From NCBI RefSeq assembly GCF_016026235.1, contig NZ_CP065613.1: a stretch of DNA of 64,000 nucleotides. One strand, given 5' to 3'. Of the stretch, positions 1 to 32,474 are shown one piece after another. The notes below the pieces were generated by a model. It saw nothing but the letters and a program-made list of their open reading frames with translations, was not told the origin of the DNA and searched no databases. Source of the DNA: Escherichia coli (GTDB taxonomy: Bacteria; Pseudomonadota; Gammaproteobacteria; Enterobacterales; Enterobacteriaceae). Positions within the stretch are counted from its first letter, which is position 1, and each line of letters starts with the position of its first letter. Made by a program: the position numbers and the translations under genes.

Positions 1-881
1 AATAAACCATGGTGATTTCCCGGCAGTACGAGCTTTAGCCGTCACCGATGGTCTGGTTGCTCTTTCCTTCGAGCGTTTAAATCAACGACCTTTAGGCTTA
101 CTTTTATAAAGATAAAAATGCCCTTCATGTTGTGCATTTTTATCTCGACCCAGCAGGCCTTCACCTAAATAAATTGCTGTCGTTGATGCTTTTGTGCCTG
201 AGTCCGACACCTTTTCCCAGCCATTACCAACATTGTAATAATGATTGCCCAGTACCCGGCAAATATAGGTCCAGCCACGGGAGCGGAGCTGTTGGAACCA
301 TCGCCCCTGAAAACCGGCATCTGTAATAACAATGACATCAGTCCCGGGGGAAAAGCACTCAGCAAGCGATTCCAGAAAACGCTCATGTACATCTGCATTC
401 GCTGTCTGTGATGATGGAACGACACAACTCATCAACGGTAAAGAACGCCCGTCACATGCCAGGCTTGCCCGCAAAAGCTGAAAACGAGAGGCATGATAAG
501 CACTCCAGTCAATGAGTATCACAACACGAGACATTCCCCGCGTAATCTTTTGGGTAATTCGCTGAAAAATGGTGGAAACCTCATTTTGCAAATGTCGATT
601 CCCCAACAGTCGATCCACCCGCTTTATTTTGTTTTTAACTGATGCCGTACCGGTTAAATGACGCCCGATACTGGTAAGTGTGAGGGAAGCGCCATTTATT
701 ACAGCATTAGTTGCGTCAATCAGTGATTTTTGACGGTAAAGATGCAAAGGGGCCAGTATGTTGTTAAGGAAATTTTGGCATAATGAACGTGCAGGCATAG
801 TGGTGATCTCCTTGAAATTGTTAGCACAATCAATTAGATCACATCTCACTATGCCTGTCTTGTTTTCTGGGGATTCCTCAG
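1..881 (-). mobile_element. IS10-like (IS4-family) insertion sequence, copy 1, partial (runs off the left edge); outside end CTGAGGAATCCCC at 869-881
   Basis: Encoded protein has IS10-type motifs (KRVDRLLGNRHL, ILIDWS, VITDAGF); terminal sequence resembles the IS10 outside end; bases 7544-8303 are an inverted copy of the same element. Confidence 0.8.
82..798 (-). CDS. IS10-like transposase, 238 codons ending at an in-frame TGA (82-84); the same frame continues transposase-like beyond it
   Basis: ORF track 82..1125 from internal Met (MPARSLCQNF...); identical over 225 aa to the copy at 7627-8303; resemblance to IS10 Tnp is from memory. Confidence 0.75.
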   Translation of the reverse strand: MPARSLCQNFLNNILAPLHLYRQKSLIDATNAVINGASLTLTSIGRHLTGTASVKNKIKRVDRLLGNRHLQNEVSTIFQRITQKITRGMSRVVILIDWSAYHASRFQLLRASLACDGRSLPLMSCVVPSSQTANADVHERFLESLAECFSPGTDVIVITDAGFQGRWFQQLRSRGWTYICRVLGNHYYNVGNGWEKVSDSGTKASTTAIYLGEGLLGRDKNAQHEGHFYLYKSKPKGR

Positions 882-2027
882 GGAAATATCCTGCATTAAC
901 GCAGGCCACGCCCGATACCAGCCAGGGCGTTGCAAAAGCGCCGGAACATGCTGATAACGCTGTAGAATATCCCACAGCAGGCTGCGCTCGACGTTGTGAT
1001 GATAAAGCGCAAACAGATTTTGCGGCTCGCGGTGCTGGCAGGCGCTTATCAGCGTTTGTGCCGCCGCCTGCGCGCCAGTCAGCGCCATATCCATGCCGCG
1101 CACGGAAATTCCGGTATTGACGCAACTGCGCAACGCATCGCCCACCAGCAGCCAGCCGTTACCGGCGTATTGCACCGGCATACTGTGCAAGCCACCTTCT
1201 GGCACCAGATGCGCACCATACTCCAGTGATTCCGTGTTTTTGATAAGCGGGCGCACTGCCGGATGCGCTTTAAAGCGAGTCAGCAGCTCGCTTGCCGGAA
1301 CACGACTTTGCGTAAGGGAAGAGAGCGGGCAAACAATCCCTAACGAGAGCGTTTGTTGATTAGTATAAAGAAATGCGCCGCTGGGTAAGTCATCACAGAT
1401 CCTGCCGCTGAACAGCAACGCTGCGCCTTCGTTATTCTCCAGATGAAAACGTTCTTCAATAGCGGATGTTTCCAGCGACAGCACTTCTTTGATCCCCAAC
1501 GCCATCGCTTCGCCAGCAGGACGAGTCACTAACCCGTGACGTTCAGCCAGGACGCTGTTGGCACCTTCTGCCAGCACCACATAACGGGCGCGGAGAATAT
1601 CGTCACCACAAATGACACCACACACTCTGCCGTTTTCTTCATACAGTGCATCCACCGTCGCACCAGGGATGCATTCGACACCTTCTTTTTCGGCTTCGGC
1701 AACCAGCCACGGATCGAACCGTGCACGTAATACACTCCAGGATTCACCGCCGGGCTGTAAGCTGGAAAACGTCGTTGCGCCATCCGGCGTTAACAGGGAA
1801 AGGCTTTCGTGAGTGATGCGTCGTTCAAGAGGCGCGGTCAGATGAAACTGAGGGAGGAGTTCCGCGAGTGCATGGGTATATAACCGCCCGCCGGAAAGAT
1901 TTTTGCTGCCGGGGATTTCAGCGCGTTCCAGTAACAAAACGGATAAACCCGCTCGCGCGCAGCGTAACGCGCAAGCGGTGCCTGCAATACCGGCACCAAT
2001 AATAATAATGTCGCAGTCGTCTTCCAT
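882..2027 (-). pseudogene. ygcN: ygcN (FixC-like FAD-dependent oxidoreductase), 3' end truncated by the IS insertion at 881
   Basis: N-terminal FAD motif DIIIIGAGIAG; ORF runs into IS sequence about 40 codons short of the ~423 aa I recall for K-12 YgcN; start codon (2027 vs 2057) uncertain. Confidence 0.7.
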
Positions 2028-2104
2028 GTCATGCCCCAGATATCCAGAACACAACACCCTAACATAGCGTTACTTAAGGGAAATTGACCGCCGACACACT
2101 CTTA

Positions 2105-2470
2105 TCATTCGCCGCGATAGATACAACCAGCGGTGCAGGTTTCTTTTACCATCACCGCACTTAACAGCGGCACAACGGGTTTAACCTGATCCCAAATCCA
2201 TTTTGCTAAAACTTCGCTGGTCGGGTTTTCCAGGCCTGGAATATCATTGAGATAATGGTGATCGAGGCGCTCATAAGTTGGCTTAAACGCTGCTTTCAGT
2301 TCAGCGAAATCGATAATCCAGCCCGTATGCGGATCGACTTCCCCGGTAATTTCCAGTCGCACCATAAAGGAATGCCCGTGCAGGCGACCACATTTATGCC
2401 CTTCCGGGACGTGTGGTAAGCGGTGAGCGGCTTCGAAGGTGAAATCTTTAAATAACGTGGTGGACATCAT
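2105..2470 (-). CDS. queD: 6-carboxy-5,6,7,8-tetrahydropterin synthase QueD
   Basis: 121-aa product [35 protein letters not shown]...; divergent from cysJ as in E. coli. Confidence 0.9.
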
Positions 2471-2785
2471 AATTTCTCTACAGGACGATAAAACCGCCGT
2501 AGAGTACCGGAAAGGCTGTTTTTTCGCATTATCTAAAACGACTTTGTTGCGCAAAATCGCTGATTTATCTTAATGATTGGCTAAATTCATTTGTTTTTCA
2601 TTAGGTTGGTTAATCTATTTTGTTGTTAAAGACTATTGCTAAAACAGGTTAGTCGATTTGGTTATTAGTTATCGCTATCCCGTCTTTAATCCACACCGTT
2701 CACCCCGTTAACCTTACCTTCTCTTCTGTTTTATGGGCGCTGACAGGGCGCAGAAACAGCTTTGCTTACTGGAACATAACGACGC

Positions 2786-4585
2786 ATGACGACACAGGTC
2801 CCACCTTCCGCGTTGCTTCCGTTGAACCCGGAGCAACTGGCACGCCTTCAGGCGGCCACGACCGATTTAACTCCCACCCAGCTTGCCTGGGTTTCTGGCT
2901 ATTTCTGGGGCGTGCTCAATCAGCAGCCTGCTGCGCTTGCAGCAACGCCAGCGCCAGCCGCAGAAATGCCGGGTATAACTATTATCTCCGCCTCGCAAAC
3001 CGGCAATGCGCGCCGGGTTGCTGAAGCATTACGTGATGATTTATTAGCGGCAAAACTGAACGTTAAGCTGGTGAACGCGGGCGACTATAAATTCAAACAA
3101 ATCGCCAGCGAAAAACTGCTTATCGTGGTGACGTCAACGCAAGGAGAAGGGGAACCGCCGGAAGAAGCCGTCGCGCTGCATAAGTTCCTGTTCTCCAAAA
3201 AAGCGCCGAAGCTGCAAAACACCGCATTTGCCGTGTTTAGCCTCGGCGATAGCTCTTATGAATTTTTCTGCCAGTCCGGGAAAGATTTTGACAGCAAGCT
3301 GGCGGAACTGGGCGGTGAACGCCTGCTCGACCGTGTCGATGCCGACGTTGAATACCAGACCGCTGCCAGCGAGTGGCGCGCTCGCGTGGTTGATGCGCTT
3401 AAATCGCGTGCGCCTGTCGCGGCACCTTCGCAATCCGTCGCTACTGGCGCGGTAAATGAAATCCACACCAGCCCGTACAGCAAAGACTCGCCGCTGGTGG
3501 CGAGCCTCTCTGTTAACCAGAAAATTACCGGGCGTAACTCTGAAAAAGACGTTCGCCATATCGAAATTGACTTAGGTGACTCGGGCCTGCGTTACCAGCC
3601 GGGTGACGCGCTGGGCGTCTGGTATCAGAACGATCCGGCACTGGTGAAAGAACTTGTCGAACTGCTGTGGCTGAAAGGCGATGAACCTGTCACCGTCGAG
3701 GGCAAAACGTTGCCTCTGAACGAAGCGCTACAGTGGCACTTCGAACTGACCGTCAACACCGCCAATATTGTTGAGAACTATGCCACGCTTACCCGCAGCG
3801 AAACGCTGTTGCCGCTGGTGGGCGATAAAGCGAAGTTACAGCATTACGCCGCGACTACGCCGATTGTCGATATGGTGCGCTTCTCTCCGGCGCAACTGGA
3901 CGCCGAAGCGCTGATTAATCTGCTGCGCCCGCTGACGCCGCGTCTCTATTCCATCGCCTCCTCGCAGGCGGAAGTCGAGAACGAAGTACACGTCACCGTT
4001 GGTGTGGTGCGTTACGACGTGGAAGGCCGCGCCCGTGCCGGTGGTGCCTCCAGCTTCCTCGCGGACCGCGTGGAAGAAGAGGGCGAAGTTCGCGTATTTA
4101 TCGAACATAACGATAACTTCCGCCTGCCCGCTAACCCGGAAACCCCGGTGATTATGATTGGCCCAGGCACCGGCATCGCGCCGTTCCGCGCCTTTATGCA
4201 GCAGCGCGCCGCTGACGAAGCGCCGGGTAAAAACTGGCTGTTCTTTGGCAACCCGCATTTTACGGAAGATTTCCTCTACCAGGTGGAGTGGCAGCGCTAC
4301 GTCAAAGAGGGCGTGCTGACACGTATCGATCTCGCCTGGTCGCGCGATCAAAAAGAAAAAGTTTACGTACAAGACAAACTGCGCGAACAGGGCGCGGAGC
4401 TGTGGCGCTGGATCAATGACGGTGCCCACATTTATGTCTGCGGCGACGCTAATCGCATGGCGAAAGACGTTGAGCAGGCACTTCTGGAAGTGATTGCCGA
4501 ATTTGGTGGCATGGACACCGAAGCGGCGGATGAATTTTTAAGTGAGCTGCGCGTAGAGCGCCGTTATCAGCGAGATGTCTACTAA
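2786..4585 (+). CDS. cysJ: Sulfite reductase [NADPH] flavoprotein alpha subunit
   Basis: 599-aa ORF, flavodoxin plus FAD/NADPH reductase domains, first gene of cysJIH. Confidence 0.95.
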
Positions 4586-6297
4586 TGAGCGAAAAACATC
4601 CAGGGCCTTTAGTGGTCGAAGGAAAACTGACAGACGCCGAGCGCATGAAGCTTGAAAGCAACTACCTGCGCGGCACCATTGCGGAAGATTTAAACGACGG
4701 TCTGACCGGCGGCTTTAAGGGCGACAACTTCCTGCTGATCCGCTTCCACGGCATGTATCAGCAGGATGACCGCGACATCCGCGCCGAACGTGCTGAACAG
4801 AAGCTGGAGCCGCGCCACGCGATGCTGTTGCGCTGCCGTCTGCCGGGTGGGGTGATTACCACTAAACAGTGGCAGGCGATCGACAAATTTGCCGGTGAAA
4901 ACACCATCTATGGCAGCATTCGCCTGACCAACCGCCAGACGTTTCAGTTCCACGGCATTCTGAAAAAGAACGTCAAACCGGTGCACCAGATGCTGCACTC
5001 GGTCGGTCTTGATGCGCTGGCGACCGCTAACGACATGAACCGTAACGTACTCTGCACCTCGAACCCTTACGAGTCGCAGCTACACGCGGAAGCGTATGAA
5101 TGGGCGAAGAAAATCTCTGAACATCTGCTGCCGCGTACCCGCGCGTATGCGGAGATCTGGCTCGATCAGGAAAAAGTCGCCACCACCGATGAAGAACCGA
5201 TCCTCGGCCAGACCTACCTGCCGCGTAAATTCAAAACCACGGTAGTGATCCCGCCACAGAACGATATCGATCTGCACGCCAACGACATGAACTTCGTGGC
5301 AATCGCCGAAAACGGCAAGCTGGTGGGCTTTAACCTGCTGGTGGGCGGTGGGCTTTCCATCGAACACGGCAACAAGAAAACCTACGCCCGCACCGCGAGT
5401 GAGTTTGGCTATCTGCCGCTGGAGCATACGCTGGCAGTGGCGGAAGCCGTCGTGACAACTCAGCGTGACTGGGGTAACCGAACCGATCGTAAAAATGCCA
5501 AAACCAAATACACGCTGGAGCGCGTGGGGGTTGAGACGTTTAAAGCGGAAGTGGAGCGTCGCGCGGGGATCAAATTCGAGCCGATTCGCCCGTATGAGTT
5601 TACCGGACGCGGAGATCGTATTGGCTGGGTTAAGGGCATTGATGATAACTGGCACCTGACGCTGTTTATCGAAAATGGTCGCATCCTTGATTATCCGGGG
5701 CGTCCGCTGAAAACCGGCCTGCTGGAGATCGCGAAGATCCACAAAGGCGATTTCCGCATTACGGCGAACCAGAATCTGATCATCGCCGGTGTGCCGGAAA
5801 GCGAGAAAGCGAAGATCGAGAAGATCGCTAAAGAGAGCGGGTTAATGAATGCCGTCACGCCGCAGCGTGAAAACTCAATGGCCTGCGTGTCATTCCCGAC
5901 TTGCCCGCTGGCGATGGCGGAAGCGGAGCGTTTCCTGCCGTCTTTTATCGACAACATCGATAATTTAATGGCGAAACATGGTGTCAGCGATGAGCATATC
6001 GTGATGCGTGTAACAGGCTGCCCGAACGGTTGTGGTCGCGCGATGCTGGCGGAAGTGGGCCTGGTGGGTAAAGCGCCGGGTCGCTACAACCTGCATCTTG
6101 GCGGCAACCGTATTGGGACACGTATCCCACGGATGTATAAAGAAAACATCACCGAGCCGGAAATCCTGGCGTCGCTTGATGAACTGATAGGGCGCTGGGC
6201 GAAAGAGCGCGAAGCGGGTGAAGGCTTCGGCGACTTTACGGTGCGTGCGGGCATCATTCGCCCGGTGCTCGATCCGGCGCGCGATTTGTGGGATTAA
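4585..6297 (+). CDS. cysI: Sulfite reductase [NADPH] hemoprotein beta subunit
   Basis: 570-aa ORF, start overlaps cysJ stop (ATGA). Confidence 0.95.
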
Positions 6298-6313
6298 CCA
6301 TCAGCCCGGTCTT

Positions 6314-6350
6314 GTAGGCCTGATAAGACGCGTGAGCGTCGCATCAGGCA
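6314..6350. repeat. REP-like palindromic unit in the cysI-cysH spacer
   Basis: GTAGGCCTGATAAGACGCG...GCGTCGCATCAGGCA inverted repeat. Confidence 0.6.
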
Positions 6351-6370
6351 AGGCAAACAGTGAGGAATCT

Positions 6371-7105
6371 ATGTCCAAACTCGATCTAAACGCCCTGAAC
6401 GAACTGCCGAAGGTAGATCGCATTCTGGCGCTGGCGGAAACTAACGCCCAACTGGAAAAACTGGACGCTGAAGGCCGCGTAGCTTGGGCGCTGGATAATC
6501 TGCCCGGTGAATATGTACTTTCTTCCAGCTTTGGCATTCAGGCGGCGGTGAGCCTGCATCTGGTGAATCAAATTCGCCCGGATATTCCGGTGATCCTCAC
6601 CGATACCGGTTACTTGTTCCCGGAAACCTACCGCTTTATTGACGAGTTAACGGACAAACTCAAGCTCAACCTGAAAGTGTACCGTGCTACCGAAAGCGCA
6701 GCCTGGCAGGAAGCACGCTACGGAAAACTGTGGGAACAGGGCGTTGAAGGCATTGAAAAGTACAATGACATCAACAAAGTCGAACCGATGAACCGGGCGC
6801 TGAAAGAACTTAACGCGCAAACGTGGTTTGCTGGCCTGCGCCGTGAACAATCCGGCAGCCGCGCCAATTTACCGGTGCTGGCAATTCAGCGTGGCGTATT
6901 TAAAGTGCTGCCGATTATCGACTGGGATAACCGAACGATATATCAGTATCTGCAAAAGCATGGCCTGAAATATCACCCATTATGGGACGAAGGATATTTA
7001 TCGGTGGGCGATACCCATACAACCCGTAAATGGGAACCCGGCATGGCGGAAGAAGAAACGCGTTTCTTTGGCTTAAAAAGGGAATGTGGGTTACACGAAG
7101 GGTAA
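6371..7105 (+). CDS. cysH: Phosphoadenosine phosphosulfate (PAPS) reductase
   Basis: 244-aa product [31 protein letters not shown]...; the ORF track extends upstream, start chosen at MSKLD. Confidence 0.93.
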
Positions 7106-7122
7106 ATATTGCCGGATAAATT

Positions 7123-7160
7123 AAACGCCTCTGTCAGAAATGATGGGGGCGTTTTTATTT
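7123..7160 (+). terminator. Putative rho-independent terminator of cysJIH
   Basis: AAACGCCTC...GGGGGCGTTT stem followed by TTTTATTTT immediately after the cysH stop. Confidence 0.45.
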
Positions 7161-7368
7161 TGCGAGCAGCATTCCTGATTTTAAACGTGAACGCCGCTGG
7201 AAGAATTATCAGGTATAGAATGGCGTCGGGTGCTTGAGGCTGTCTGGCGTTAAGCATTCGCGAGGTTCCAGATGGACAAAAGCCCCAGGCGATATTTCTA
7301 TCAACCTGAGGCTCGCGTTCGAACGTAGCAATTCGAATGTTAGTCTCTTCTTTGCAGGGAGGCAAGAC

Positions 7369-7521
7369 ATGCTGACAAAATATGCCCTTGTGGCAATCAT
7401 AGTGCTGTGTTTTACAGTACTGGGATTCACGCTGATGGTAGGCGACTCGTTGTGTGAGTTGAGTATCAGAGAACGTGGTATGGAGTTTAAGGCTGTTCTC
7501 GCTTACGAATCGAAGAAGTAG
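7369..7521 (+). CDS. hokX: Hok/Gef-family type I toxin (50 aa) with an in-frame upstream Mok-like extension back to 7234; position matches the hokX/sokX locus next to cysH
   Basis: [50 protein letters not shown] carries the Hok motifs SLCE..IR and AYES; SD GGGAGG 7-14 nt upstream; gene name by position, from memory. Confidence 0.7.
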
Positions 7522-7543
7522 CCACCACGCGGGGGTAAAACCC

Positions 7544-8303
7544 CTGAGGAATCCCCAGAAAACAAGACAGGCATAGTGAGATGTGATCTAATTGATTGTG
7601 CTAACAATTTCAAGGAGATCACCACTATGCCTGCACGTTCATTATGCCAAAATTTCCTTAACAATATACTGGCCCCTTTGCATCTTTACCGTCAAAAATC
7701 ACTGATTGACGCAACTAATGCTGTAATAAATGGCGCTTCCCTCACACTTACCAGTATCGGGCGTCATTTAACCGGTACGGCATCAGTTAAAAACAAAATA
7801 AAGCGGGTGGATCGACTGTTGGGGAATCGACATTTGCAAAATGAGGTTTCCACCATTTTTCAGCGAATTACCCAAAAGATTACGCGGGGAATGTCTCGTG
7901 TTGTGATACTCATTGACTGGAGTGCTTATCATGCCTCTCGTTTTCAGCTTTTGCGGGCAAGCCTGGCATGTGACGGGCGTTCTTTACCGTTGATGAGTTG
8001 TGTCGTTCCATCATCACAGACAGCGAATGCAGATGTACATGAGCGTTTTCTGGAATCGCTTGCTGAGTGCTTTTCCCCCGGGACTGATGTCATTGTTATT
8101 ACAGATGCCGGTTTTCAGGGGCGATGGTTCCAACAGCTCCGCTCCCGTGGCTGGACCTATATTTGCCGGGTACTGGGCAATCATTATTACAATGTTGGTA
8201 ATGGCTGGGAAAAGGTGTCGGACTCAGGCACAAAAGCATCAACGACAGCAATTTATTTAGGTGAAGGCCTGCTGGGTCGAGATAAAAATGCACAACATGA
8301 AGG
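7544..8303 (+). mobile_element. IS10-like insertion sequence, copy 2, truncated (outside end plus 5' part of transposase), interrupted by IS4
   Basis: Begins CTGAGGAATCCCC 22 bp after the hok stop; inverted duplicate of 1-881; ends where the IS4 left end begins. Confidence 0.8.
7627..8303 (+). pseudogene. IS10-like transposase truncated after codon 225 by the IS4 insertion (the ORF reads 9 more codons into IS4)
   Basis: Identical to the 82-798 product up to ...DKNAQHEG, then diverges into the IS4 left end. Confidence 0.8.
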
Positions 8304-9729
8304 TAATGCCGATCAGTTAAGGATCAGTTGACCGATCCAGTGGCTGTGTAAGAATCCGGAAACGCTCACTTGTTTCCGGATTTTTTTATGCACATTGGAC
8401 AGGCTCTTGATCTGGTATCCCGTTACGATTCTCTGCGTAACCCACTGACTTCTCTGGGGGATTACCTCGACCCCGAACTCATCTCTCGTTGCCTTGCCGA
8501 ATCAGGTACTGTAACGCTACGCAAGCGCCGTCTTCCCCTCGAAATGATGGTCTGGTGTATTGTTGGCATGGCGCTTGAGCGTAAAGAACCTCTTCACCAG
8601 ATTGTGAATCGCCTGGACATCATGCTGCCGGGCAATCGCCCCTTCGTTGCCCCCAGTGCCGTTATTCAGGCCCGCCAGCGCCTGGGAAGTGAGGCTGTCC
8701 GCCGCGTGTTCACGAAAACAGCGCAGCTCTGGCATAACGCCACGCCGCATCCGCACTGGTGCGGCCTGACCCTGCTGGCCATCGATGGTGTGTTCTGGCG
8801 CACACCGGATACACCAGAGAACGATGCAGCCTTCCCCCGCCAGACACATGCCGGGAACCCGGCGCTCTACCCGCAGGTCAAAATGGTCTGCCAGATGGAA
8901 CTGACCAGCCATCTGCTGACGGCTGCAGCCTTCGGCACGATGAAGAACAGCGAAAATGAGCTTGCTGAGCAACTTATAGAACAAACCGGCGATAACACTC
9001 TGACGTTAATGGATAAAGGTTATTACTCACTGGGACTGTTAAATGCCTGGAGCCTGGCGGGAGAACACCGCCACTGGATGATACCTCTCAGAAAGGGAGC
9101 GCAATATGAAGAGCTCAGAAAACTGGGTAAAGGCGATCATCTGGTGAAGCTGAAAACCAGCCCGCAGGCACGAAAAAAGTGGCCGGGACTGGGAAATGAA
9201 GTGACAGCCCGCCTGCTGACCGTGACGCGCAAAGGAAAAGTCTGCCATCTGCTGACGTCGATGACGGACGCCATGCGCTTCCCCGGAGGAGAAATGGCGG
9301 ATCTGTACAGTCATCGCTGGGAAATCGAACTGGGATACAGGGAGATAAAACAGACGATGCAACTGAGCAGGCTGACGCTGAGAAGTAAAAAGCCGGAGCT
9401 TGTGGAGCAAGAGCTGTGGGGTGTCTTACTGGCTTATAATCTGGTGAGATATCAGATGATTAAAATGGCGGAACATCTGAAAGGTTACTGGCCGAATCAA
9501 CTGAGTTTCTCAGAATCATGCGGAATGGTGATGAGAATGCTGATGACATTGCAGGGCGCTTCACCGGGACGTATACCGGAGCTGATGCGCGATCTTGCAA
9601 GTATGGGACAACTTGTGAAATTACCGACGAGAAGGGGAAGGGCCTTCCCGAGAGTGGTAAAGGAGAGGCCCTGGAAATACCCCACAGCCCCGAAAAAGAG
9701 CCAGTCAGTTGCTTAACTGACTGGCATTA
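8304..9729 (+). mobile_element. IS4, complete 1426-bp element with imperfect terminal inverted repeats (TAATGCCGATCAGTTAAGG ... CTTAACTGACTGGCATTA)
   Basis: Length, terminal repeats and encoded InsG match IS4; flanks (ACAACATGAAGG left, CGACATTTGCCG right) are not a direct repeat. Confidence 0.9.
8388..9716 (+). CDS. insG: IS4 transposase InsG (442 aa)
   Basis: [36 protein letters not shown]... near-identical to E. coli IS4 transposase as remembered. Confidence 0.92.
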
Positions 9730-31069: not shown

Positions 31070-31253
31070 ATTTCTCTGAGATGTTCGCAAGCGGGCCAGT
31101 CCCCTGAGCCGATATTTCATACCACAAGAATGTGGCGCTCCGCGGTTGGTGAGCATGCTCGGTCCGTCCGAGAAGCCTTAAAACTGCGACGACACATTCA
31201 CCTTGAACCAAGGGTTCAAGGGTTACAGCCTGCGGCGGCATCTCGGAGATTCC
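31070..31253 (+). ncRNA. ssrS: 6S RNA (RNA polymerase sigma-70 regulatory RNA)
   Basis: Begins ATTTCTCTGAGATGTTCGCAAGCGGGCCAGTCCCCTGAGCCG and ends ...GGCGGCATCTCGGAGATTCC, matching E. coli 6S RNA from memory; ends +/- 3 nt. Confidence 0.88.
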
Positions 31254-31876: not shown

Positions 31877-31937
31877 GGGCGATACACCTGCATCGCGCTG
31901 ATTGACATCGTTGATTCTTTAACCTAATTTAGTGAGT

Positions 31938-32082
31938 AAGGGTAAGGGAGGATTGCTCCTCCCCTGTGACTGACTGTTAATAAGCTGGGAAACTTATGAG
32001 TAACAGTACAATCAGTATGATGGCAAGTCGCATCATAACCCTTCTCCTTCAAGCCCTCGCTTCGGTGAGGGCTTTACCGTTA
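31938..32082 (+). ncRNA. sibC: Sib antisense RNA (type I antitoxin), copy 1; ends approximate
   Basis: Promoter TTGACA-17bp-TAATTT at 31902-31930; fully overlaps the ibs ORF on the opposite strand; hairpin AAGCCCTCGCTTCGGTGAGGGCTTT at 32051-32075. Confidence 0.5.
31977..32036 (-). CDS. ibsC: Ibs-family type I toxin, 19 aa (MMRLAIILIVLLLISFPAY)
   Basis: Reverse complement of 31977-32036 translates to an Ibs peptide; SD GGAGAAGGG upstream on the minus strand. Confidence 0.75.
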   Translation of the reverse strand: MMRLAIILIVLLLISFPAY

Positions 32083-32329
32083 CAGCCCCATGCTGCCCAG
32101 TTATCGTAAGCTCTCTTTAAATAACCGCAACGCATTGATCTACCTTTAAATCTTTTCTTCGAGCGCGCTCGAAAAACCCCATGCAAAACAGAGATAATTT
32201 TTGGGAAAAAGGATCTATTACGGCAGTAAACGTGGGCGATGAAGTGGCTATCAAAAAGTTCGGTTCAGGGCGATGCACCCCGCATCGCCCTGATTGACAT
32301 CGTTGATTCTTTGACCTAATTTAGTGAGT

Positions 32330-32474
32330 AAGGGTAAGGGAGGATGACTCCTCCCCTGAGACTGACTGTTAATAAGCTCCGAAACTTATCAGTAACAGTA
32401 CAATCAGTATGATGACAAGTCGCATCATAACCCTTCTCCTTTAAGCCCTCGCTTCGGTGAGGGCTTTACCGTTA
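32330..32474 (+). ncRNA. Sib antisense RNA, copy 2; ends approximate
   Basis: Same promoter and hairpin as copy 1, shifted 392 bp. Confidence 0.5.
32369..32428 (-). CDS. Ibs-family type I toxin, 19 aa (MMRLVIILIVLLLISFGAY), second copy
   Basis: Reverse complement of 32369-32428; differs from copy 1 at two residues. Confidence 0.75.
   Translation of the reverse strand: MMRLVIILIVLLLISFGAY

Follow-up and report, generated by a model that had tools for sequence, protein, structure and literature searches.

Can a chromosomal toxin gene that meets an insertion sequence (IS) 22 nt past its stop codon still hold its mRNA in store for delayed activation? The question is raised by a small hok-type gene in a 64,000-nt stretch of an Escherichia coli chromosome (contig NZ_CP065613.1), which we refer to in its entirety as the window. 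The reading we favor, with a probability of about 0.78, is that the locus is hokX/sokX with its 3′ control tail cut off by ISEc60, and that the storage of toxin mRNA for delayed activation has been lost.

The toxin ORF occupies 7369-7521 on the plus strand (50 codons from the ATG, followed by the TAG at 7519-7521), and a Shine-Dalgarno sequence, GGAGG (7358-7362), lies 6 nt 5′ of the ATG. We found that its product matched the Pfam profile HOK_GEF (PF01848) over model positions 1-42 of 42 (E = 3.5e-11), and that NCBIfam models matched it below their curated cut-offs (HokA, 57.7 against 89; Hok family, 41 against 73). The motifs SLCE, IR and AYES are readable in the sequence, and the translation gives C14, C29 and Y46, the Y46 codon being TAC followed by G. 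Members of the Hok family are described as ~50 aa long, with an N-terminal hydrophobic helix, a conserved Cys14 and either Cys or an editable Tyr at position 46 (PMC12214031). Judged by profile, length and residues, HokX fits the Hok/Gef family, and the peptide, which is still encoded, would probably be toxic if over-expressed. A protein identical to it, WP_000956460.1, is named “Hok/Gef family protein” by RefSeq at the same position in BL21 and FDAARGOS_943. An earlier note on this DNA had described an intact 50-aa Hok/Gef ORF with a strong Shine-Dalgarno sequence. This much stands, since the 50 codons from ATG to TAG are unbroken, the Pfam match is full-length, GGAGG is in place and the same protein is annotated elsewhere; the start it gave, 7234, does not, being the upstream TTG of a mechanically called ORF, and the gene starts at 7369. 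The 95-codon in-frame ORF from TTG 7234 was rejected as a gene because its start is not conserved and an allelic indel at alignment column 157 breaks the frame. In HokC, HokD and HokE, the Tyr at position 46 is recoded to Cys via A-to-I editing by TadA (PMC12214031); the Tyr46 codon region of hokX (7504-7507) reads TACG, and HokX may be edited in the same way, allowing a disulfide bond.

Upstream on the plus strand of the window lie cysI and cysH, the latter ending at 7105. Weak Rfam matches to ctRNA_p42d and Spot_42 at 7063-7163 fell below the gathering score and were dismissed as the cysH terminator. A hokX/sokX locus sits between cysH and iap/cas3 in about 4,200 of 5,426 complete E. coli genomes, 4,145 of which aligned to the cysH-proximal hok region of the window, and hokX is the literature name of the hok gene between cysH and iap (PMC7232551). 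As read from its sequence, the window locus is the chromosomal type I toxin-antitoxin pair hokX/sokX, placed 3′ of cysH on the cas3/iap side and near-identical to its orthologs. K-12 has lost the hokX ORF and retains the leader as far as the ATG and, with it, an annotated antisense gene, sokX (b4701).

At the level of sequence, the promoter (putative), the leader, the SokX gene, the Shine-Dalgarno sequence and the toxin ORF are all intact (Table 1). The leader also holds the SokX target region and the GGAGG at 7358-7362. In an alignment of the window with K-12, EC958 and BL21, the hokX -10 region was invariant, and the leader was identical or near-identical to that of other strains. A consensus promoter scan called neither the hok nor the sok promoter, and both were assigned by homology and by eye. 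SokX is predicted to fold into an 11-nt single-stranded 5′ tail, a 15-bp stem-loop with one bulge and a U-rich tail (-23.7 kcal/mol, z = -3.3). Two alleles of the leader were found (E. coli counts): the window/EC958 type, whose mok-like ORF is closed by a TAG, in ~1,021 genomes, and the commoner, open BL21 type in ~3,184, in which the ORF from ATG 7272 is 34 codons long and its TGA overlaps the hok ATG. The window allele retains an ORF of 12 codons, from ATG 7337 to TGA 7373-7375, and this TGA likewise overlaps the hok ATG. The leader hairpin loop at 7322-7329, a SokX target, reads CGT-AGC in the allele that creates the TAG and CCCAAAC in the other.

Table 1. Features of the hokX/sokX locus and its surroundings, in positions of the window.
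Feature	Position	Strand	Basis and remarks
Second ISEc60 copy, inverted, left end facing inward at 881	1..881	-	In ygcN, runs off the window; minus-strand pattern match at 863-881
cysH intrinsic terminator	7123..7154	+	Terminator scan: 14-bp stem and T-run; upstream boundary of the hokX locus
Putative hokX -10 box, TAGAAT	7216..7221	+	6 nt 5′ of the conserved transcript 5′ end GGGTGC at 7228; putative, read by eye
Conserved hok mRNA leader	7228..7384	+	Rfam RF01794, 106.7 bits (gathering score 59), E = 5e-25, full model 1-157
5′ tac box, GGGTGCTTGAGGC	7228-7240	+	In the leader; equals the transcript 5′ end
mok-like leader ORF	7272..7328	+	In this allele, ATG and 17 sense codons, TAG at 7326-7328
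SokX antisense RNA gene, appears intact	7272..7329	-	Maps onto K-12 ncRNA sokX (b4701)
Putative sokX promoter	7337..7365	-	TTGCCT (7365-7360), 17-nt spacer, TAACAT (7342-7337), 7 nt to the G at 7329; putative, read by eye
3′ terminal hairpin remnant, the IS target site	7528..7543	+	5′ arm CGCGGGGG, loop TAAAA, CCC of the 3′ arm
ISEc60 (IS4 family), left 760 bp	7544..8303	+	100% identical to the FDAARGOS_943 ISEc60 at the same hokX site
IS4, 1,426 bp, full-length, inserted in ISEc60 at transposase codon 225	8304..9729	+	NCBIfam IS4, 303.8 bits; ISEc60 homology stops at 8303

Downstream of the toxin gene, the 22 nt after the TAG (7522-7543) read ccaccacgcgggggtaaaaccc and are followed from 7544 by CTGAGGAATCCCCAGAAAA; the IS4-family terminal repeat CTGAGGAATCCCC has its first nucleotide at 7544, so exactly 22 nt separate it from the TAG. 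The 19-mer CTGAGGAATCCCCAGAAAA occurs twice in the window, against 0 occurrences expected by chance, and almost all alignments of E. coli genomes, by the thousand, to the window end at 7543/7544. Since the C at 7544 can be assigned to either the IS or its target, the junction is defined only to within 1 nt. The ends of ISEc60, CTGAGGAATCCCC, resemble those of IS10. A transposase ORF starts at 7627, of which codons 1-225 of 396 are present, and matched NCBIfam transpos_IS4_2 at 189 bits (cut-off 152) over model positions 1-190 of 340. At exactly this junction FDAARGOS_943 carries a complete ISEc60, annotated by RefSeq, and over 881-8303 its sequence and that of the window agree at 100% identity. 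An end-pattern search did not find the ISEc60 right end in the window, where the right half of the element is replaced by IS4 at 8304, and its target duplication was seen only at other sites.

We then compared this junction with uninterrupted hokX alleles, in which the 3′ UTR extends ~66 nt past the stop and consists of a GC-clamped hairpin, a box complementary to the 5′ end and a T-run. The intact 3′ flank of EC958 reads TAG-ccacca-CGCGGGG-taaaa-CCCCGCG-tactgaattgtgatggtttGGCCTCCTGCACCC-cttttttt, and the intact alleles (EC958, O104:H4) read CGCGGGG(G)TAAAACCCCGCG at the hairpin. The fbi box of intact hokX alleles, GGCCTCCTGCACCC, is complementary to the transcript 5′ end, GGGTGCTTGAGGC. Because the IS lies inside the hairpin, the fbi box and the native T-run 3′ end are lost, and a motif search found no copy of the fbi motif and T-run downstream of 7543 or anywhere in the 64-kb window. 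With its 3′ fbi box missing, the window copy is therefore a truncated member of the hok/sok group. The anatomy that the earlier note had proposed is borne out on each of these points: the IS end lies 22 bp past the hok stop, where the repeat starts (7544) and genome homology breaks; the IS10-like end is the left end of ISEc60, an IS4-family element by RefSeq annotation and the 189-bit NCBIfam match; and the 3′ UTR is truncated where the fold-back inhibition element lies, as alignment with EC958 and O104:H4 places fbi and the T-run downstream of the insertion and both are absent from the window. Across genomes, the 3′ UTR is intact through the T-run in 3,417 of 4,220 ORF-bearing genomes (81%), and the other ~19% break 21-22 nt past the stop.

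Predicted folds were examined for both forms of the RNA. In the 359-nt EC958 transcript, nt 1-6 and 9-20 are predicted to pair with the 3′ end (-132.6 kcal/mol, z = -3.7), and the intact hokE paralog is predicted to fold with similar end pairing through sequences of its own (GGGUGCCU and AGGCACCU; z = -6.9). In the predicted fold of the truncated window RNA, the 5′ end folds locally. The energy of the terminal hairpin was -14.4 to -15.2 kcal/mol in intact alleles, -11.1 at the window junction and -7.3 at the BL21 IS186 junction; in the window the stem is weakened, not destroyed, because the terminal CTG of ISEc60 rebuilds part of it. Scanning for tac-box duplexes downstream of the stop gave -27.7 kcal/mol for the true tac-fbi pair and -28.1 for a chance site inside IS4, against a background mean of -19 (sd 3.6 kcal/mol), so duplex energy does not discriminate and would not, by itself, exclude a surrogate tac partner downstream.

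What the loss of this tail would mean can be gauged from plasmid R1. Full-length R1 hok mRNA is inert via tac/fbi pairing, and tac is freed once the 3′ end has slowly been trimmed as far as the terminal stem, after which the trimmed mRNA is either bound by Sok and cleaved by RNase III or translated; single substitutions that break a CG pair of the terminal stem abolish both the trimmed mRNA and toxicity (PMC9841398). The earlier note had cast fbi as needed for mRNA maturation, and here it has to be corrected: fbi instead holds the full-length mRNA inactive up to the point at which 3′ trimming takes it off. ISEc60 has entered the GC-clamped hairpin 8-22 nt after the hokX stop, removing the fbi box, which normally locks the full-length mRNA inert and stable via its 5′ end, as well as the native T-run 3′ end, and weakening the stem that protects the trimmed mRNA. 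Transcripts of hokX would then run into ISEc60 in its sense direction and no inert, end-paired pool would form. Such read-through transcripts would be either open at once to SokX and RNase III or unstable, and the locus would no longer store toxin mRNA for delayed activation. Given the loss of fbi, the mRNA is therefore predicted to be permanently open to SokX and RNase III and to have no stored pool, not to be locked shut.

We infer these RNA fates, and the loss of function, from the plasmid R1 and K-12 precedents, while the anatomy, the homology, the loss of fbi and the target rule described below are observed directly. In K-12, hokA, hokC and hokE have been described as IS-inactivated, as has hokX of E. 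coli B (PMC7232551, PMC12214031). Yet gef/hokC of K-12, into which IS186 has inserted at this position, continues to be transcribed, its transcript ending ~200 nt inside the IS, and to be regulated by its antisense (PMC3562002), so “inactive” is relative. Chromosomal hok loci that carry no IS are also reported, in a preprint, to give no post-segregational killing (bioRxiv 10.1101/2025.08.07.668861, which cites Pedersen & Gerdes 1999); the IS may thus be neither the sole nor the first cause of inactivity. That the toxin ORF is “probably no longer activatable”, as the earlier note had put it, is plausible on such precedents.

Why does the IS lie 22 nt past the stop? As far as the junctions tell, the position is set by the target choice of the IS. 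In BL21 and O104:H4, IS186 follows the hokX stop after 21-22 nt, within 1 nt of the nucleotide at which ISEc60 begins in the window, and the two copies have opposite orientations, which makes them independent events. The O104:H4 copy is a simple insertion, with the remaining 3′ UTR continuing beyond the IS. IS186 also lies +22 nt after the K-12 hokC stop and +21 nt after the K-12 hokE stop, and in RMDEC332 ISEc60 lies +22 nt after the hokE stop, with a 10-bp target duplication (GAGCAATCCC). Counts of IS186-at-hokX junctions (1,312 and 1,907 genomes) are inflated by cross-matches to hokE-IS186 and plasmid hok junctions and were used only qualitatively; the shares of intact and broken loci given above do not rest on them. 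We gathered ISEc60 junctions from 11 loci in addition to the window; at least nine independent ones all had GGG(G)-N3-5-(T)CCC beside the IS end and duplications of 10-11 bp, and one plasmid site had been struck by ISEc60 in both orientations. The +22 position arises because the hok terminal hairpin, a near-perfect G-run/spacer/C-run site, fits this ISEc60 target rule, GGG-N(3-5)-CCC. A literature search found no published target rule for ISEc60, which two papers in all mention. For IS186, SaiSree et al. in 2001 reportedly arrived at a target consensus of a G-run, a spacer and a C-run, and the target rule of IS231 is of the same kind.

Taking these sites together, we tentatively propose, at slightly less than even odds, that hok terminal hairpins and hairpins like them (e.g. 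at ibs genes) form a shared landing pad for at least two IS4-family elements, IS186 and ISEc60, since both obey a GGG-N-CCC target rule. Independent insertions would then have knocked out type I toxin loci time after time at a single nucleotide, and the resident IS would go on to seed adjacent deletions, to which several lineages (BL21, FDAARGOS_943 and this genome) would owe the loss of the type I-E cas operon.

Three other accounts of the locus were weighed against truncation of a once-controlled hokX. The strongest competitor, which we nonetheless consider rather unlikely, holds that hokX was dead or neutral before the IS arrived, and that the insertion reflects only the sequence preference of the IS and neither selection for inactivation nor its cause. 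ISEc60 and IS186 do strike GGG-N-CCC at many unrelated places, IS-free chromosomal hok loci without killing are reported in the preprint cited above, and the TAG in the mok-like ORF is common to ~1,021 genomes, including some with an intact 3′ UTR such as EC958. This account sits poorly, however, with the 81% of hokX loci that keep the whole 3′ UTR with its end pairing, which suggests purifying selection on the RNA, and translational coupling may survive the TAG, since the ORF from ATG 7337 ends at a TGA overlapping the hok ATG.

At the opposite extreme, the pair might still work, with a read-through mRNA that is constitutively open and checked only by SokX, so that toxin would appear each time the level of SokX drops, as it might under stress or when transcription is arrested. 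We regard this as improbable. R1 owes its delay and its stored mRNA pool to the end-paired full-length form (PMC9841398), the IS-carrying K-12 loci are regarded as inactive, and the leader ORF of the window allele has a premature TAG; these weigh against an upstream half (promoter, leader, sokX, Shine-Dalgarno sequence and ORF) that is intact and identical or near-identical to that of other E. coli, a terminal stem partly rebuilt at the junction, and the precedent of K-12 gef/hokC, transcribed and antisense-regulated with IS186 at the same position (PMC3562002). That the ORF is a chance small frame that happens to lie beside an IS has a negligible probability in our view. Its small size and the NCBIfam scores below curated cut-offs would fit such a frame, but not the full-length Pfam and Rfam leader matches, synteny conserved in >4,000 genomes, or a +21/22-nt position that two distinct IS elements have taken repeatedly, at four hok loci, and we rejected a chance ORF on profile, leader, synteny and recurrent IS position. 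Truncation of hokX/sokX by ISEc60 remains the account that we prefer.

So read, the locus has close relatives. The nearest is hokX of BL21/E. coli B, with IS186/IS421 (PMC7232551), which is the same gene, with the protein WP_000956460.1, the same leader and an IS junction within 1 nt; there too fbi and the 3′ end have been lost or split off, and on its far side the IS borders the CRISPR array, the cas operon being gone. In the window, by contrast, the IS is ISEc60, not IS186, was later cut by IS4 and is joined to the lysS region, and the leader ORF has a TAG where the 34-codon ORF of BL21 is open. The K-12 loci hokC (gef)/sokC-IS186A and hokE/sokE-IS186B likewise have an IS4-family element in a GGGG-N-CCCC hairpin 21-22 nt after the stop, with the toxin ORF and antisense intact, but they are paralogs at other chromosomal sites, the IS is IS186, and the gef transcript end has been mapped inside it. 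With R1 hok/sok the locus shares the Hok peptide, a structured leader, a Sok-type antisense, tac/fbi pairing (in intact relatives) and a terminal GC stem after the stop, weakened in the window copy. R1 hok/sok, however, is complete and mediates post-segregational killing, whereas the window copy is chromosomal, is without fbi and its native 3′ end, and has a different leader ORF arrangement. ISEc60 resembles IS186, taking for the latter the consensus as reported, in its GGG(G)-N3-5-CCC targets and 10-11-bp duplications, and differs in its IS10-like ends and its transposase subgroup, transpos_IS4_2.

Truncation of hokX by an IS is thus a known and ordinary form of hok-locus decay, here with another IS, and K-12 hokC and hokE are its textbook cases. 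IS-decapitated chromosomal hok loci have been described since 1999, and one more example matters little alone. Mildly new is that the hok-hairpin hot spot is common to ISEc60 and IS186, as seen in two hok paralogs; of modest value, too, is that target choice by the IS dictates the recurring “+22 nt” position. Since this site is broken in ~19% of E. coli hokX loci, the intact “Hok/Gef family protein” calls of annotation pipelines overstate the number of functional loci. An IS at the hokX hairpin also marks one edge of cas-operon deletions, in BL21 and in the lineage of FDAARGOS_943 and this genome, which bears on CRISPR-Cas loss in E. coli and Shigella lineages. At its far end, the IS in the hokX hairpin of FDAARGOS_943 (L001 5739-5800) meets the last, degenerate CRISPR repeat beside iap, and that of BL21 (L002 4240-4640) meets the CRISPR array; in both lineages a deletion running outward from the IS has therefore taken the complete type I-E cas operon.

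The surroundings of hokX in this genome have been rearranged further. From 9730, the window continues into the lysS-prfB-recJ...gcvP region, which in FDAARGOS_943 lies ~140 kb away on the opposite strand; this points to an IS-mediated rearrangement or inversion peculiar to this genome, with the lysS-side joint made via IS4. An inverted repeat of 762 nt, perfect throughout, links 122-883 and 7542-8303. Together, the ISEc60 pair, the IS4 and the lysS joint point to an IS-rich chromosome of the Escherichia/Shigella type, rearranged around hokX. The two inverted ISEc60 copies, left ends inward, bracket ygcN′-queD-cysJIH-hokX and look like a composite transposon or an inversion substrate; FDAARGOS_943 appears to be without the ygcN copy.

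Several observations concern ISEc60 at other loci. Tandem ISEc60 dimers with the same 10-bp spacer, GGGATTTACC, were seen at two different loci in RMDEC332 and RMDEC364 (L006 3859-3870; L009 2806-2817), and the spacer GGGATTTACC matches a junction flank on an EIEC pINV plasmid. At hokE, the dimer has its target duplication at the outer ends only, as if it had moved as one unit. RMDEC332 also has two hokE-type genes ~3 kb apart, upstream of entD (L007 1729-1881; L006 2391-2543), which amount to a local duplication of the hokE locus; ISEc60 interrupts the first of them, and the 3′ UTR of the second is intact. In the CFSAN029787 chromosome (L011 1454-2747), the hairpin GCGGGG-TTTC-CCCCGCC, located between ibsA and another ibs type I toxin gene, carries an ISEc60 insertion. 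The window itself holds a further pair of type I loci, of the ibs/sib kind: two tandem Sib antitoxin RNAs, at 31902-32052 and 32294-32444 (Rfam SIB_RNA, 137 and 134 bits), adjoin the 6S RNA gene ssrS at 31070-31253.
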